This document shows positions 27,810-32,859 of a DNA stretch of 49,113 nt, piece after piece. A model generated the notes under the pieces. It was not told the DNA's origin. It made no database searches and saw only the letters and a program-made list of their open reading frames with translations. Position 1 is the stretch's first letter; every line of letters starts with the position of its first letter. The DNA lies in contig JACZWN010000002.1 of NCBI GenBank assembly GCA_022572105.1, positions 1-49,113 of the forward strand, given 5' to 3'. A program made the translations under genes and the position numbers. This DNA is from Pseudomonadota bacterium. Its GTDB lineage: Bacteria > Pseudomonadota > Alphaproteobacteria > Kiloniellales > J153.

Positions 27810-28136
27810 TCACTTTTCGGGTTCCGCATTCTTCGAATAGGCGCTGTGCGCGAGCCGCCGCCCGGCGGCGTTGCCTATCTGGCTCTTCAACTCTTCCATC
27901 TTCGCCTCGATCGACCGGCCGAGCCGTCCGAAATCGTCGATGATCGCGACCAACCGGGGTTGCACGTAGCGGCCATCTTCGGCGGGAAGCCCCTCGATCC
28001 GGCAGCAGAGGTCCTCGATGTCGCCCTCCAACGAAGACAGATCGAGGAGCGAGTCCGCCGCCAGCTCGGCCTGGGCGCGGGCGATAATTCCGCCAAGCGC
28101 CTGCAGCTCGACGATAATCTCGGCGCTCGGGGTCAT
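27810..28136 (-). CDS. Hypothetical helical protein, flagellar-operon associated
   Basis: 108 aa with no recognisable motif. High third-position GC. ATGA overlap with the upstream FlhB-C-like gene. 36 nt upstream of fliO. Confidence 0.55.
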   Translation of the reverse strand: MTPSAEIIVELQALGGIIARAQAELAADSLLDLSSLEGDIEDLCCRIEGLPAEDGRYVQPRLVAIIDDFGRLGRSIEAKMEELKSQIGNAAGRRLAHSAYSKNAEPEK

Positions 28137-28471
28137 GCTCCGGGATCCGATACGGCCGTGGCTTGGACCCGGTAGACGTAGGACAGGATCTCGGCCACGG
28201 CGGCGAGCGCTTGCAGCGGAATTTCGCTGTCGATCTCCATGGTCGCCAGGATCTCGGCCAAGTCGGCGTCGCTACGCACCCGGATCCCGCGGTCGAAGGC
28301 GATCTGCAGAATCTGCTCGGCGAGCGCGCCGCGCCCCTTGGCGACCACGCGCGGCGCCCCCGACCGGCCCGGGTGGTTGTCGATGGCGACCGCCAGCGGT
28401 CTCTGGTCGGGTGTGTCCCGCTCGGACCTCGGCGTGTCGAAATAAACGGATTCGTCCACCACGGCGATCAA
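28133..28471 (-). CDS. Stand-alone FlhB C-terminal-domain-like protein (EscU/YscU/HrcU family fragment type)
   Basis: APRVVAKGRGALAEQILQIAFDRGIRVRSDADLAEILATMEIDSEIPLQALAAVAEILSYVYR matches the FlhB-C / YlqH-like pattern. The tracked start is TTG, and nearby GTG starts are possible. Confidence 0.7.
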   Translation of the reverse strand: MIAVVDESVYFDTPRSERDTPDQRPLAVAIDNHPGRSGAPRVVAKGRGALAEQILQIAFDRGIRVRSDADLAEILATMEIDSEIPLQALAAVAEILSYVYRVQATAVSDPGA

Positions 28472-28612: not shown

Positions 28613-28879
28613 CTAATCCGATGGTTTCGAGTCGCCCTTGAATGGCCCGCGGCCGGGCTGACCACGGTTCTTCATGGCCTGGGCGAGTGTCTCGCCGCCC
28701 GCGGCCGCGGCCCGGTTCTCGGCCTGAATCCGCTCGAAAATCTCGCGCCGCAGCACGGTCGCATCGGTCGGAAACGTGAAGCCTAGCTTGATCGACTTGC
28801 CCCGGATATCGATGACGGTCACCTCGATATTATCGTTAATGATGACCGACTCGCCGATTTTGCGTGTCAGATAGAGCAT
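28613..28879 (-). CDS. csrA: Carbon storage regulator CsrA (flagellar, FliW-partnered type with C-terminal extension)
   Basis: Start at the ATG at 28879 with AGGAGG 8 nt upstream: MLYLTRKIGESVIINDNIEVTVIDIRGKSIKLGFTFPTDATVLRREIFERI. 88 aa with a tail of about 35 aa. Confidence 0.9.
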   Translation of the reverse strand: MLYLTRKIGESVIINDNIEVTVIDIRGKSIKLGFTFPTDATVLRREIFERIQAENRAAAAGGETLAQAMKNRGQPGRGPFKGDSKPSD

Positions 28880-28988: not shown

Positions 28989-29057
28989 GCAACGAGCCCG
29001 ATAATGACCGTCCCGAGGGCCTCCGGCCCGAGCGGCCGCCACGTCACCGGGAGAGGC

Positions 29058-29462
29058 ATGGAAGGAAAATTCAACATTTTCGCGGTTTTGGGCAAGCGCT
29101 TGGACTGGCTGAGCCAGCGCCAGCGGGTGCTTGCCGAGAACGTCGCCAATGCCGACACGCCGAACTACGTACCGCGCGACCTCGACGAGGCGGAGTTTGG
29201 GCGGATCTTGCGCAGCCAGCTGTCCCCCGTCGATCCCAAGATGACCCACGCGGCGCACCTGCGGGGCACGGCGCAACGCGGCGGTCCGGCGAACAGCGTG
29301 CGTCAAAAGGACCCCTACGAGACCTCGCCGTCGGGCAATGCGGTGATTCTCGAGGAGCAGTTGATCAAGGTCACCAAGACCCAGTCGGACTATCAGACCA
29401 TCGTCAACCTGTACCGCAAGCAGATGGACATGGTCCGGACCGCACTCGGGCGCGGCGGCTGA
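29058..29462 (+). CDS. flgB: Flagellar proximal rod protein FlgB
   Basis: LDWLSQRQRVLAENVANADTPNYVPRDL ... NAVILEEQLIKVTKTQSDYQTIVNLYRKQMDMV. The ATG at 29058 (GGGAGAGG upstream) is preferred over the tracked ATG at 29004. Confidence 0.85.
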   Translation: MEGKFNIFAVLGKRLDWLSQRQRVLAENVANADTPNYVPRDLDEAEFGRILRSQLSPVDPKMTHAAHLRGTAQRGGPANSVRQKDPYETSPSGNAVILEEQLIKVTKTQSDYQTIVNLYRKQMDMVRTALGRGG

Positions 29463-29479
29463 TGATGCCGGCGCTTAAT

Positions 29480-29766
29480 ACCAAAGGTCCTTGATAATGA
29501 CCCATAGAGACGGCTTCCCAAGGTTTTCGGCCAGGAGCGCGTGGCGTAGCGATGCGGGACATCGCAAGCCATGCGCCCCGTCCACAAGAATTGGGCCGTC
29601 CGAAAGCCTTGGGAAACCACCGTTCCGGTCGGGCAGGCGAACCGCCGGAGGGCGTCGGAAAGCCTTGACGATGTCCCGCATCGCCCGCGGCTTCCCTCCT
29701 ACCCGCCCGTTGGCCCGACGGATCGCCGGCCCGATCTCTATGGGTCATTATCAAGGACCTTTGGTA
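29480..29766. mobile_element. MITE-like non-autonomous element (~287 bp) inserted between flgB and flgC
   Basis: Perfect 33-bp terminal inverted repeats: ATACCAAAGGTCCTTGATAATGACCCATAGAGA (29479..29511) and its reverse complement (29735..29767). Flanking TA/TAA duplication. Further internal inverted repeats (GCGATGCGGGACATCGC / CGATGTCCCGCATCGC). No credible ORF. Confidence 0.8.
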
Positions 29767-29781
29767 TAAGGAGGAGGCTGG

Positions 29782-30192
29782 ATGGCGGATCTGAGCAAAT
29801 CCATGAACATCTCGGCGGCCGGCATGAAGGCGCAGGGCACGCGCTTGCGCATCATTTCCGAGAACATCGCCAACGCCGGCTCGACGGCGCTCACGCCGAA
29901 CGGCGAGCCCTACCGGCGCAAGCTGGTGACCTTCGGCACCACGCTCAACCGCGAGCTCGGCACGGAGCTGATCGACGTGCAGAAGGTTTCGCGCGACCCG
30001 TCCGATTTCGGCCTGCGCTACCAGCCCGGCCATCCGGCCGCCGATGCGAGCGGATACGTGAAGACCGCGAACGTCAACACGCTGATCGAGATGACCGACA
30101 TGCGCGAAGCCCAACGCAGCTACGAGGCCAACCTCCGCGTGATGCAGGCGGCGCGCGCCATGCTGCAGCGGACCATCGATCTGCTGCGCTAA
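29782..30192 (+). CDS. flgC: Flagellar proximal rod protein FlgC
   Basis: MNISAAGMKAQGTRLRIISENIANAGST ... VNTLIEMTDMREAQRSYEANLRVMQAARAML. AAGGAGGAGG RBS. Confidence 0.93.
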   Translation: MADLSKSMNISAAGMKAQGTRLRIISENIANAGSTALTPNGEPYRRKLVTFGTTLNRELGTELIDVQKVSRDPSDFGLRYQPGHPAADASGYVKTANVNTLIEMTDMREAQRSYEANLRVMQAARAMLQRTIDLLR

Positions 30193-30293
30193 TACCAAGA
30201 AGCGCCGAGTTTTCCAGCGGCCGCCAGGAAGGCGGCCGCCAATTCGCCAGGAAGGCCGAGGGCAGGGGCGTGTTTCGCCCCGGGAGATTTGCC

Positions 30294-30605
30294 ATGGCCA
30301 TCAATTTCACCGACGCCGTCAAGGCGTACGAGAAGATCGCGCGGCACGACGCGATTCCGGGCCCCGGCGGCCCGCAAATCAAGGGCGGCGCGGATTTCTC
30401 CGATGTCCTGCGCGAAGCTACCGAAGGCGCCATGGGGGCCCTGCGCGAGGGCGAGCGCCAGACCCTGAAGGCAGCGGCCGGAACCGCCGACTTGAACGAC
30501 GTGGTGATGGCGGTGGGCAAAGCCGAAATGACGCTGCAAACCGTGGTCGCGCTGCGCGACCGCGTGATCCAGGCCTACCAGGAAATTATCCGGATGCCGA
30601 TCTAG
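30294..30605 (+). CDS. fliE: Flagellar hook-basal body protein FliE
   Basis: 103 aa. FSDVLREATEGAMGALREGERQTLKAAAGTADLNDVVMAVGKAEMTLQTVVALRDRVIQAYQEIIRMPI. Confidence 0.88.
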   Translation: MAINFTDAVKAYEKIARHDAIPGPGGPQIKGGADFSDVLREATEGAMGALREGERQTLKAAAGTADLNDVVMAVGKAEMTLQTVVALRDRVIQAYQEIIRMPI

Positions 30606-30674: not shown

Positions 30675-30941
30675 ATGAACTCCGCCGACGTCATGGAGGT
30701 CTCGCGTGAAGCCGTCGTGGTCATGCTCAAGATCGGCTCGCCGGTCCTGCTGCTCGCCCTCACCGTCGGCCTCGTCATTTCGTTGTTTCAGGCGCTCACC
30801 CAGATGCAGGAAATGACCCTGACCTTCGTACCGAAAGCCCTCGTCATCGTCGTGTCGCTGATGGTTTTCCTGCCCTTCATGCTCGGGGTTCTCGTCACCT
30901 TCACCGAGGGCCTGATGGACCGGATCGTCGCGTTGGGCTAG
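30675..30941 (+). CDS. fliQ: Flagellar export apparatus protein FliQ
   Basis: 88 aa, two TM. GSPVLLLALTVGLVISLFQALTQMQEMTLTFVPK. Confidence 0.92.
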   Translation: MNSADVMEVSREAVVVMLKIGSPVLLLALTVGLVISLFQALTQMQEMTLTFVPKALVIVVSLMVFLPFMLGVLVTFTEGLMDRIVALG

Positions 30942-30947
30942 CCGGCC

Positions 30948-31709
30948 ATGCTCGAAGAGCTTCTGCCCGCCGGAATCTTCACGATTTTGCTGGTCTTCGT
31001 GCGCGTCGGCGCGGCCATGATGATTCTGCCGGGCTATGGGGAGCCGTACGTTTCTCCGCGTCTGCGCCTGCTGCTCGCGCTGATGATCTCCATGGTCGTG
31101 GCTCCGGTTCTGTCGGGGACCCTGCCGGCGATGCCCGAGAGCGCCGCCATGCTGGTCCTGGTCATACTGGGCGAGGTCCTGATCGGGGTCTTCCTGGGGA
31201 CGCTCTCGCGCCTGTTCCTGGCCGCGCTGACCACGGCGGGCATGCTGATCGCCTACATGAGCACCATGGCGAACGCGCTGACCCTCGACCCGATCGCCGC
31301 GCAGCAGGGCTCGATCGCGGGATCGTTCTTGTCCGTCGTCGCGTTGCTCACGATCGTCACCCTCGACCTGCATCACCTGATGCTGATGGCCGTGATCGAC
31401 AGCTACCAGCTGTTCATCCCGGGCCAGGTGCCACCGGTCAGCGATTTTTCCGATCTGATGGCGCGCACGGTCTCCAAGACCTTTCTGCTGTCGTTTCAGA
31501 TCGCCGCGCCTTTCGTGGTCGTGGGGCTCATATTCTTCCTGGGCGTGGGCCTGCTTGGCCGGCTGATGCCGCAGATGCAGGTCTTCTTCGTCGCGATGCC
31601 GCTGCAGATCGCCGTCGGCATTGCCGTCCTGTTCATCGCGCTACCCATGATGTTGCGCTGGTTTATCGGCAGCTTCCAGGACACCCTGCTGCCGTTCGTC
31701 TCGATTTAG
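30948..31709 (+). CDS. fliR: Flagellar export apparatus protein FliR
   Basis: 253 aa polytopic. FTILLVFVRVGAAMMILPGYGEPYVSPRLRLLLALMIS. Lies between fliQ and flhB. Confidence 0.9.
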   Translation: MLEELLPAGIFTILLVFVRVGAAMMILPGYGEPYVSPRLRLLLALMISMVVAPVLSGTLPAMPESAAMLVLVILGEVLIGVFLGTLSRLFLAALTTAGMLIAYMSTMANALTLDPIAAQQGSIAGSFLSVVALLTIVTLDLHHLMLMAVIDSYQLFIPGQVPPVSDFSDLMARTVSKTFLLSFQIAAPFVVVGLIFFLGVGLLGRLMPQMQVFFVAMPLQIAVGIAVLFIALPMMLRWFIGSFQDTLLPFVSI

Positions 31710-31761: not shown

Positions 31762-32859
31762 ATGGCCGAAAACACTCAAGACGATTCACAAAAAACAGAG
31801 GAACCGACACAGCGGCGGCTCGAGCAGGCGCGCGAGAAGGGCCAGGTCGCGAAGTCCCAGGAGGTCACCCATTGGTTCATGATCCTGGCGGCCGCGCTCT
31901 TCATCGGCGTTTTCGGCGAATCGTTCGCCAAGGGGATCGTGAGCAGCCTGTACCGTTTCGTGGAGCAGCCCCATAGCATCCGGCTCGACGGCGGGCAGCT
32001 GCGCGATGTCCTGATCGAGACCATGGGCCAGCTCGGGCTGGCGGTGCTGGCGCCGGTGATCGTGGTGATGTTGGCGGCCTTCATAGCCGGCTTCATTCAG
32101 AACGGCTTGGTGTTCTCGACCGAAACGATCACGCCCAAGCTGGAGAAACTGTCGCTGATCAAGGGCCTGAAGCGCCTGTTCTCGAGCCGTTCGCTGGTGG
32201 AATTCGCCAAGGGCGTGAGCAAGATCGCCATCGTCGGTGCGGTCGTGGTGCTGCTCCTGTGGCCGGAGCGCGAGATCATGTTCAACGTCACCTCGTTGGG
32301 CGTCGCGCAATTCATGGGGGTGCTGCAGAGCCTGGCGGTCCGCGTACTTGTCGGCGTCCTTGCGGTCATGACGGTGATCGCGATCCTCGACTTTCTCTAT
32401 CAGAAGCAAAAGCACCTAAAAGAGCTTCGCATGTCGAAGCAGGATCTCAAGGAGGAGTACAAGCAGACCGAGGGCGATCCGATGATCAAGGCGCGCCTGC
32501 GCCAGATCCGTACGGAACGGGCGCGCCGGCGCATGATGGCCGCCGTGCCCGATGCCGACGTGGTGATCACGAACCCGACCCACTACGCGGTTGCCCTCAA
32601 GTACGAACACGAGAAGATGGAGGCGCCGGTGCTGGTCGCCAAGGGCATCGATTCGATTGCCTTCCGCATGCGCGAGGTCGCCGAGGAGCACGATGTTCCC
32701 GTCGTTGAAAATCCACCGCTTTGCCGGGCGCTCTACGACGGCGTCGATCTGGATCAGGCGGTCCCGGCCGAGCATTACAAGGCGGTCGCCGAGATCATCG
32801 GCTACATCATGCGCCTCAAGGGCAAGCTGTCGGGGCGCCGTGGGACCGCACGCCGATGA
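31762..32859 (+). CDS. flhB: Flagellar export switch protein FlhB
   Basis: SQKTEEPTQRRLEQAREKGQVAKSQEV ... MSKQDLKEEYKQTEGDPMIKARLRQIR ... VVITNPTHYAVALKY (NPTH autocleavage site). Confidence 0.93.
   Translation: MAENTQDDSQKTEEPTQRRLEQAREKGQVAKSQEVTHWFMILAAALFIGVFGESFAKGIVSSLYRFVEQPHSIRLDGGQLRDVLIETMGQLGLAVLAPVIVVMLAAFIAGFIQNGLVFSTETITPKLEKLSLIKGLKRLFSSRSLVEFAKGVSKIAIVGAVVVLLLWPEREIMFNVTSLGVAQFMGVLQSLAVRVLVGVLAVMTVIAILDFLYQKQKHLKELRMSKQDLKEEYKQTEGDPMIKARLRQIRTERARRRMMAAVPDADVVITNPTHYAVALKYEHEKMEAPVLVAKGIDSIAFRMREVAEEHDVPVVENPPLCRALYDGVDLDQAVPAEHYKAVAEIIGYIMRLKGKLSGRRGTARR

Follow-up and report, generated by a model that had tools for sequence, protein, structure and literature searches.

Results

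An Element Lies Between flgB and flgC in a Flagellar Operon

The window, by which we mean the whole stretch of 49,113 nucleotides that was analyzed, carries on its plus strand a flagellar operon in which all six genes, flgB, flgC, fliE, fliQ, fliR, and flhB, are intact as judged from the open reading frame list and Pfam. The first gene, flgB (29058–29462), encodes the flagellar basal-body rod protein, matches the Pfam profile Flg_bb_rod, and is also called in related contigs; gene callers place its start at 29004, and it ends with the tandem stops TGATGA (29460–29465). Downstream on the same strand lie flgC (29782–30192), fliE (30294–30605), fliQ (30675–30941), fliR (30948–31709), and flhB (31762–32859), each with full-length Pfam coverage, and the operon is presumably co-transcribed from flgB to flhB across the element described below. 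Upstream of flgB, on the minus strand, Pfam identifies CsrA, a protein with an FlhB C-terminal domain, and FliP. The second of these is a stand-alone protein of 112 residues (28133–28471, minus strand), encoded between csrA and the fliP-side genes, that matches only the C-terminal part of FlhB (Bac_export_2, profile positions 261–335) and is present besides the full-length flhB at 31762–32859.

The 101-nt spacer between flgC and fliE (30193–30293), whose length is constant in all related contigs, has features of its own. The sequence GCCAGGAAGGC is present twice in this spacer, and in the first copy a 9-bp GGCGGCCGC stem displays AGGAA in its loop (fold z = −2.8); Rfam adds a weak, sub-threshold match to the CsrA-sponge RNA RsmW (21.5 bits, E = 0.78). 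Because csrA (28613–28879, minus strand) belongs to the same flagellar cluster, the spacer looks, as far as its sequence goes, like a candidate CsrA-binding leader controlling fliE.

From stop to start, flgB and flgC are separated by 319 nt (the original prediction gave 320 bp), compared with 28 nt in the empty alleles described in the next section. Between them lies a MITE of 288 bp (29479–29766, TACC…GGTA) that is 62.5% G+C and contains no transposase; the family alignment supports this definition, which corrects the extent first proposed (29480–29766, 287 bp). The element is flanked by two copies of TAA, at 29476–29478 and 29767–29769, where empty alleles have a single TAA (GCGCT-TAA-GGAGG), and flanks across the family have the form TNA/TNA. 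The left terminal inverted repeat (29479–29510, plus strand) is 32 nt long within the element, or 33 nt counting A29478, and the right repeat (29735–29766, minus strand) is its perfect complement. Across the 49-kb window, the 33-nt repeat sequence ATACCAAAGGTCCTTGATAATGACCCATAGAGA is present in exactly two places, 29478–29510 (plus) and 29735–29767 (minus), with no further match in the window at up to three mismatches and none expected from shuffles; it forms by far the strongest inverted repeat of the window and the only strong one. The 33-bp repeat had been called perfect, and it is exact, except that its outermost A:T pair belongs to the duplicated TAA, so that the element proper spans 29479–29766 and the repeat inside it is 32 bp. 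Several internal inverted repeats had also been claimed and were found, at 29512–29530/29600–29618 and 29549–29564/29669–29684; together (29512–29684) they make the branched interior of the predicted fold. Rfam 15 covariance models gave no match over the element at E≤1, and its two 90-residue frames gave no Pfam match.

On the flgC side, the right TAA copy together with the adjoining GGAGGAGG rebuilds the original TAAGGAGGAGG, so that flgC keeps its own strong ribosome-binding site. The Shine-Dalgarno (SD) sequence AAGGAGGAGG (29768–29777) and the start codon (29782–29784), which together occupy 29768–29784 on the plus strand, are both untouched by the insertion, and a gene with its own strong SD would not be expected to depend on coupling to flgB. 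The element ends 1–3 nt upstream of the SD rather than the 12 nt previously given, a figure that instead measures the gap between the right TAA and the ATG.

At the flgC stop codon (30190–30199), the sequence TAATACCAAG consists of TAA followed by the first seven bases of the MITE terminus (TAA-TACCAAAGG). This likeness is probably due to chance, but it may represent a footprint.

The Insertion Is Recent and Polymorphic

We surveyed contigs that encode a FlgC 93–100% identical to that of the window. Eighteen of these, whose FlgC is 93–99% identical, are empty (L042, L043, L047–L049, L051–L056, and L177–L183), with a flgB-flgC gap of 28 nt and, two single-base polymorphisms aside, the very junction GCGCTTAAGGAGGAGGCTGGATG that removal of the element had been predicted to restore. 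The empty junction reads …GGCGGCTGATGATGCCGG(C/T)GCTTAAGGAG(G/A)AGGCTGGATG, and L048, L049, and L180 have GGAGAAGG in the SD. In five further contigs (L041, L044, L045, L046, and L050) the site is filled, with the right end of the element joined to TAAGGAGGAGGCTGGATG, and the net insert is 291 nt, that is, the 288-bp element and one TAA. Counting the window, the filled allele is in the minority at 6 of 24 contigs, a ratio distorted by assembly bias against repeats.

One FlgC protein (P0007) occurs with both alleles, and the filled contig L046 is identical to the empty contigs L048 and L049 over 780 nt of flgC-fliE, which indicates that the insertion is very young. Contig L041 (ERZ27267505), an independent assembly, has the same insertion with a 3-nt internal deletion relative to the window. 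The remaining filled contigs, L044–L046 and L050, have a body of the 261-bp type, and the left flank of L044 (L044 1–60) is foreign and does not encode flgB; the repeat interior of these four assemblies is probably collapsed or chimeric, and hence only their right junction is firm. The insertion between flgB and flgC is recent and unfixed, has a 3-bp TAA target duplication, and is polymorphic in a natural population. A TA duplication of the IS630/mariner type, with CC…GG ends, was also considered; it predicts the empty site GCGCTTAATATAAGGAGG, which is contradicted by all 18 empty sites.

With the element taken as TACC…GGTA, nearly all copies in the family have T-N-A flanks on both sides. The two flanking triplets are identical in 30 of 61 copies (TAA in 11, TTA in 10, TCA in 6, and TGA in 3). 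Where the triplets are mismatched, the same flanks recur in other combinations: tcgggcatggtcTTA flanks the copies in L019, L115, and L155, with matching triplets only in L155, and TCAccccaccaaccc is found in both L011 and L092. One unique flank may thus be joined through the repeat to different partners (L019/L115/L155/L062 and L011/L092), which means that metagenome and MAG contigs are sometimes mis-joined or collapsed across this repeat of 260–290 bp, and the non-identical triplets are largely explained as an effect of assembly.

The Element Belongs to a Dispersed Family

Exact matching of a 20-mer from the repeat against one genome per species yielded 40 loci, distributed over nine MAG records. 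By their labels, most of the carriers belong to Alphaproteobacteria or to unclassified 'Proteobacteria'. The carriers include two MAGs named 'Proteobacteria bacterium' (13–14 loci each), one of Rhodospirillales, three of Kiloniellales/Kiloniellaceae, and, also with copies, one labeled Hyphomicrobiales and one labeled Acidimicrobiia; none is Neisseria. A single Spirosoma match (L010) lies inside a gene and looks like chance. The metagenome scan, also by exact 20-mer match, returned at least 120 loci, and the element is common to more than 160 fetched loci. When the whole window was compared by BLAST with the first 40 loci, only 29449–29773 matched, so the flanks are unrelated. The proposal of a MITE inserted at a TA/TAA duplication is therefore strongly supported: the copies are dispersed and have the same termini, and the window's flanks are not common to those loci. 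Copies elsewhere, which a sequence merely conserved in place would lack, are numerous in MAGs and metagenomes.

Of the 65 complete copies that we recovered, 61 are unique, so the family has at least 61 distinct members. They range from 99 to 462 bp with a mode of 261 bp, occur in both orientations, and fall into two body subfamilies whose common part is only the first ~24 nt of the termini (TACCAAAGGTCCTTGATAATGAC). Some are indel variants or contain nested insertions, and many contigs end inside the element, as expected of an assembly-breaking repeat.

With coding frames called by GC3, the coding-like stretches on either side are co-directional for 33 of 44 copies, which is roughly the background for bacterial gene neighbors, convergent for 6, and divergent for 5. 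In ~17 of the 44, the upstream frame reaching the element has the duplicated triplet as its stop codon. Because the window contains 1451 TNA triplets, this pattern is best read as the result of selection, in which insertions survive only at stop codons or in short spacers. The position of the flgB-flgC copy is typical of the family and not special.

Several individual loci merit description. In L022 (6276–6584), a second-subfamily copy of 303 bp lies between adjacent permease-like genes of an ABC-transporter-like operon (identities taken from a reading of the translations). It entered precisely at the TAA stop of the upstream gene, and TAAGGAG comes directly after it, so that the junction is of the flgB-flgC type. 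In L039 (3468–3535) and in the 462-bp copy of L032, a nested palindromic insert of ~70 nt with an extremely high G+C content (CCCCGGGGGGCCACGGGGGGTGTCCCCCCGGCTCTATAAATGCGGGGGGCGCCCCCGCGACCCCCGG) suggests that the MITE is itself a target for another small repeat family. L039 was also considered as an orthologous insertion, its left flank being 88% similar over 29 nt, yet the gene is a different one and the similarity is a G+C-rich coincidence. Solo termini remain as remnants in L004 (5091–5121), L016 (3467–3499), L026 (7231–7260), and L007 (7580–7612), including a 31-nt mini-palindrome, TACCAAGGGTCATTATCAAGGACCTTTGGTA. The solo terminus in L026 directly precedes a GlmU-like ORF, whose ribosome-binding site and start codon appear to be supplied by the AAAGG-N9-ATG of the repeat. 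Host proteins that read through copies of the element were also sought, and in the cases checked the long read-through ORFs run antisense to real genes.

A Stop-Free Frame and Depletion of TNA

A stop-free frame of 90 codons runs from an ATG inside the left repeat to the right TAA (29497–29769, plus strand), with a mirror frame on the minus strand. Across the family, the frame from the repeat's ATG stays open to the end of the element in 70 of 93 copy-strands (75%), compared with 22% of composition-matched shuffles. Substitutions among 33 copies are distributed 38/28/28 over the three codon positions, with no excess at the third. A hidden gene in the element was rejected on the lack of codon-position bias and of a Pfam match, and the 90-codon frame is probably not a gene. 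TNA triplets are depleted inside the window copy, with 1 observed and 6.6 expected, whereas the observed/expected ratio across the whole window is 0.96. This depletion may explain the open frames, and it could in turn reflect avoidance of self-insertion.

The Target Duplication Points to an IS5-Type Transposase

The original prediction had hoped for an autonomous IS partner, and none was found among 176 fetched loci, plasmids, and viral contigs; the scans drew on fragmented MAGs and retrieved exact 20-mer matches, so that the loci gathered are a lower bound. The lone termini with room for a neighboring gene have only ordinary host genes beside them and no transposase ORF, and no pair of termini 600–3500 bp apart in the fetched loci encloses a plausible IS. 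An all-against-all comparison of L001–L040 revealed no longer shared repeat, and the plasmid and viral collections gave no usable match. Two partner candidates, L120 and L141, were set aside as a degenerate terminus next to a normal copy, or host genes.

A preference for TNA targets and exclusively 3-bp direct repeats characterize the IS1031 group of the IS5 family (PMC12016507), and canonical Harbinger elements of the related PIF/Harbinger superfamily also make 3-bp duplications (PMC12730594). From the 3-bp TNA duplication, which the flanks of the MITE family have in common with the IS5/IS1031 group, we infer that an IS5-superfamily (IS1031-type) DDE transposase acts in trans; on this evidence the enzyme would be an IS1031-like member of the IS5 family. 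The MITE termini, TACC… (TACCAAAGG), are unlike the GAACCTG… end of ISLrh (PMC12016507), the one published end compared. The proposed link to the IS5/IS1031 group is accordingly one of mechanism and not of membership, with neither a transposase gene nor a full-length element with these termini found.

The Predicted RNA Fold Leaves flgC Initiation Accessible

Folded alone, the element reaches a predicted −178.6 kcal/mol, with 80% of its bases paired and an uninterrupted 32-bp terminal stem; in context it reaches −184.3 kcal/mol (z = −10.3), and the terminal duplex alone (32–33 bp) amounts to about −60 kcal/mol. Instead of the single, very long hairpin that had been envisaged, the fold consists of the 32-bp terminal stem closing a branched interior. 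To compare filled and empty transcripts, 29400–29840 was folded with and without the element. The predicted pairing of the flanks is identical in both, the unpaired probability of the flgC SD is 0.74–1.0 in the filled and 0.82–1.0 in the empty transcript, and the values for the AUG are the same, so that occlusion of flgC initiation is not predicted.

No T-run or terminator-like tail follows the stem, no terminator-like site was found in or beside the element, and a consensus scan detected no promoter-like site there. By eye, TGGTATAAG at 29762–29770 resembles an extended −10 motif; a transcript from it would start at or after the flgC SD and its −35 is poor, and we do not credit it. The models thus support neither SD occlusion nor termination. 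Cleavage of the terminal stem by RNase III is plausible given the predicted structure, as a perfect duplex of 32–33 bp exceeds the length that RNase III needs.

Discussion

A Young and Probably Tolerated Passenger

The features by which prokaryotic MITEs are generally recognized were found here as follows: terminal inverted repeats that are perfect over 32–33 nt, with termini kept across 61 copies; small size (99–462 bp) and absence of a transposase gene, with no Pfam match and no coding signature; multiple dispersed copies in unrelated contexts; and a target-site duplication, seen by filled-versus-empty comparison as a doubled TAA that is single in 18 empty sites. The flgB-flgC element is very probably a non-autonomous DNA transposon (MITE) and a recent, polymorphic insertion, most likely tolerated as a near-neutral or mildly deleterious passenger. 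Its family, apparently undescribed, is a multi-copy and abundant MITE family of uncultured alphaproteobacteria, that is, a known kind of element with known behavior.

The following sequence of events would account for the observations. A transposase supplied in trans would have recognized the terminal repeats of ~24–33 nt, and the 288-bp element would have entered the TAA that lies 14–16 nt past the flgB stop codon, doubling that TAA. The insertion would thereby have struck the only harmless spot in the 28-nt intercistronic spacer, with the flgB stops kept. Folding predictions for the polycistronic RNA have the element form a closed domain of its own, which brings the two original flanks next to each other, and the flgC initiation region would remain as accessible as in the empty allele. 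The one strong biochemical consequence predicted by this scheme is that the perfect RNA duplex of 32–33 bp should be a good RNase III substrate, and cleavage would split flgB from the flgC-fliE-fliQR-flhB part of the transcript. Near-neutrality of the insertion seems the natural reading, and the minority status of the filled allele also fits mild counter-selection.

Alternative Explanations

That predicted duplex is also what recommends the view that the element has been domesticated as a regulator, acting as an RNase III site or a pause that uncouples the dosage of flgB from that of flgC-fliE-fliQR-flhB, or as a stabilizing 5′ or 3′ structure after processing. Correia and ERIC elements are known to alter transcript fate (PMC10969869), and the filled allele persists in at least five other assemblies. 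Set against this are an allele that is unfixed and in the minority (18 empty versus 6 filled contigs), an insertion shown to be very young by the 780-nt identity of filled and empty alleles, a position typical of the family's selection-filtered distribution beside stop codons, the lack of any feature that distinguishes the flgB-flgC copy from other copies, and an unchanged accessibility of the SD. We therefore consider a regulatory role unlikely.

The open frame raises a different prospect, in which AAAGG-N9-ATG in the left repeat initiates translation of the 90 codons and the ribosomes melt the hairpin and pass on to flgC, keeping the two genes coupled. The excess of stop-free frames over shuffles (70 of 93 copy-strands versus 22%) would be in line with such a role, as would the window frame, whose stop codon is precisely the duplicated TAA, 12 nt ahead of the flgC ATG. 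However, the perfect terminal stem sequesters both the SD-like motif and the ATG, the 38/28/28 substitutions show no bias, Pfam offers no match, selected peptides on both strands are implausible, and the open frames may be a by-product of TNA depletion, all of which makes translation of the element very improbable.

Because this repeat demonstrably breaks metagenome assemblies or causes mis-joins in them, with many contigs ending inside it, the element might also have been spliced in by the assembler, or the contig might be chimeric at the repeat. Yet the two flanks are flgB and flgC in the synteny of the empty alleles, TAA is cleanly duplicated at the junctions, and the insertion recurs, with an internal difference of 3 nt, in the independent assembly L041; we give an artefact scarcely any credence. 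Finally, the idea that the flgB-flgC junction natively contains a conserved, structured spacer or a riboregulator rather than a mobile insertion, for which the statistically exceptional fold might have spoken, can be dismissed, since the element is missing from 18 near-identical relatives with a 28-nt spacer, which already refutes it, occurs at dozens of unrelated loci, and matches no Rfam family.

Returning to the tolerated passenger, a more speculative extension is that the family as a whole is adapted to life inside operons. Under this proposal, four features could together form a 'stealth' design for gene-dense genomes: targeting of TNA, in very many cases a stop codon or else the TAA within a TAAGGAG junction; a predicted closed fold that brings the flanks back together and does not occlude the ribosome-binding site of the following gene; one frame that is stop-free on both strands; and depletion of the element's own TNA target inside it. 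To these the proposal adds an RNase III-dependent break at the present site. We regard the whole as doubtful; if it were true, the break between flgB and flgC-flhB would make the flagellar stoichiometry of the filled allele differ from that of the empty one.

Our understanding of flagellar regulation is unchanged by these results unless expression data reveal an effect. The filled and empty alleles on near-identical backgrounds nonetheless constitute a natural experiment on a 288-nt hairpin of −180 kcal/mol in an essential flagellar operon. The family also adds to what is recorded for a poorly sampled group of uncultured alphaproteobacteria, and it breaks and mis-joins metagenome assemblies, so contigs and MAGs of these lineages need care wherever copies occur.

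Comparison with Known Elements

Rickettsia palindromic elements (RPE) are palindromic repeats whose frames stay open, so that in-frame insertion may be tolerated (PMC10969869). The MITE family likewise keeps one frame free of stops on both strands; it differs in that the flgB-flgC copy is intergenic, and the cases checked gave no convincing read-through into a host protein. The ERIC/IRU elements of enterobacteria resemble the MITE as intergenic palindromic repeats that are transcribed within operons, and they alter the fate of mRNA, as in Yersinia, where an RNase E site becomes exposed (PMC10969869). ERIC elements differ in their length of ~127 bp, their host range, and their unrelated sequence, and it is orientation and RNase E, not a long perfect duplex, that determine their effect.

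[quoted passage not shown] The repeats of Chunjie measure 21 bp and its direct repeats 9 bp, and its composition is A+T-rich (PMC3184786). The flgB-flgC MITE, in contrast, has 32-bp repeats, a 3-bp TNA duplication, and a G+C content of 62.5%.

The Correia elements (CREE/NEMIS) are alike in being small and non-autonomous, in their long terminal inverted repeats, and in their insertion beside or between genes. They are found in Neisseria, measure ~100–160 bp, duplicate TA, and carry IHF and promoter motifs. The MITE family departs from them in its predominant sizes (261–288 bp), its 3-bp TNA duplication, its G+C richness, and its lack of a promoter-like site. Membership among the Correia elements was rejected on this general description, given the TNA duplication, the exclusion of the TA model, and carriers that include no Neisseria. 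In Neisseria, Correia elements are co-transcribed with their neighbors and their RNA stems are cut by RNase III (PMC10969869), and by analogy they may be the best model for a possible effect of the MITE on its transcript.
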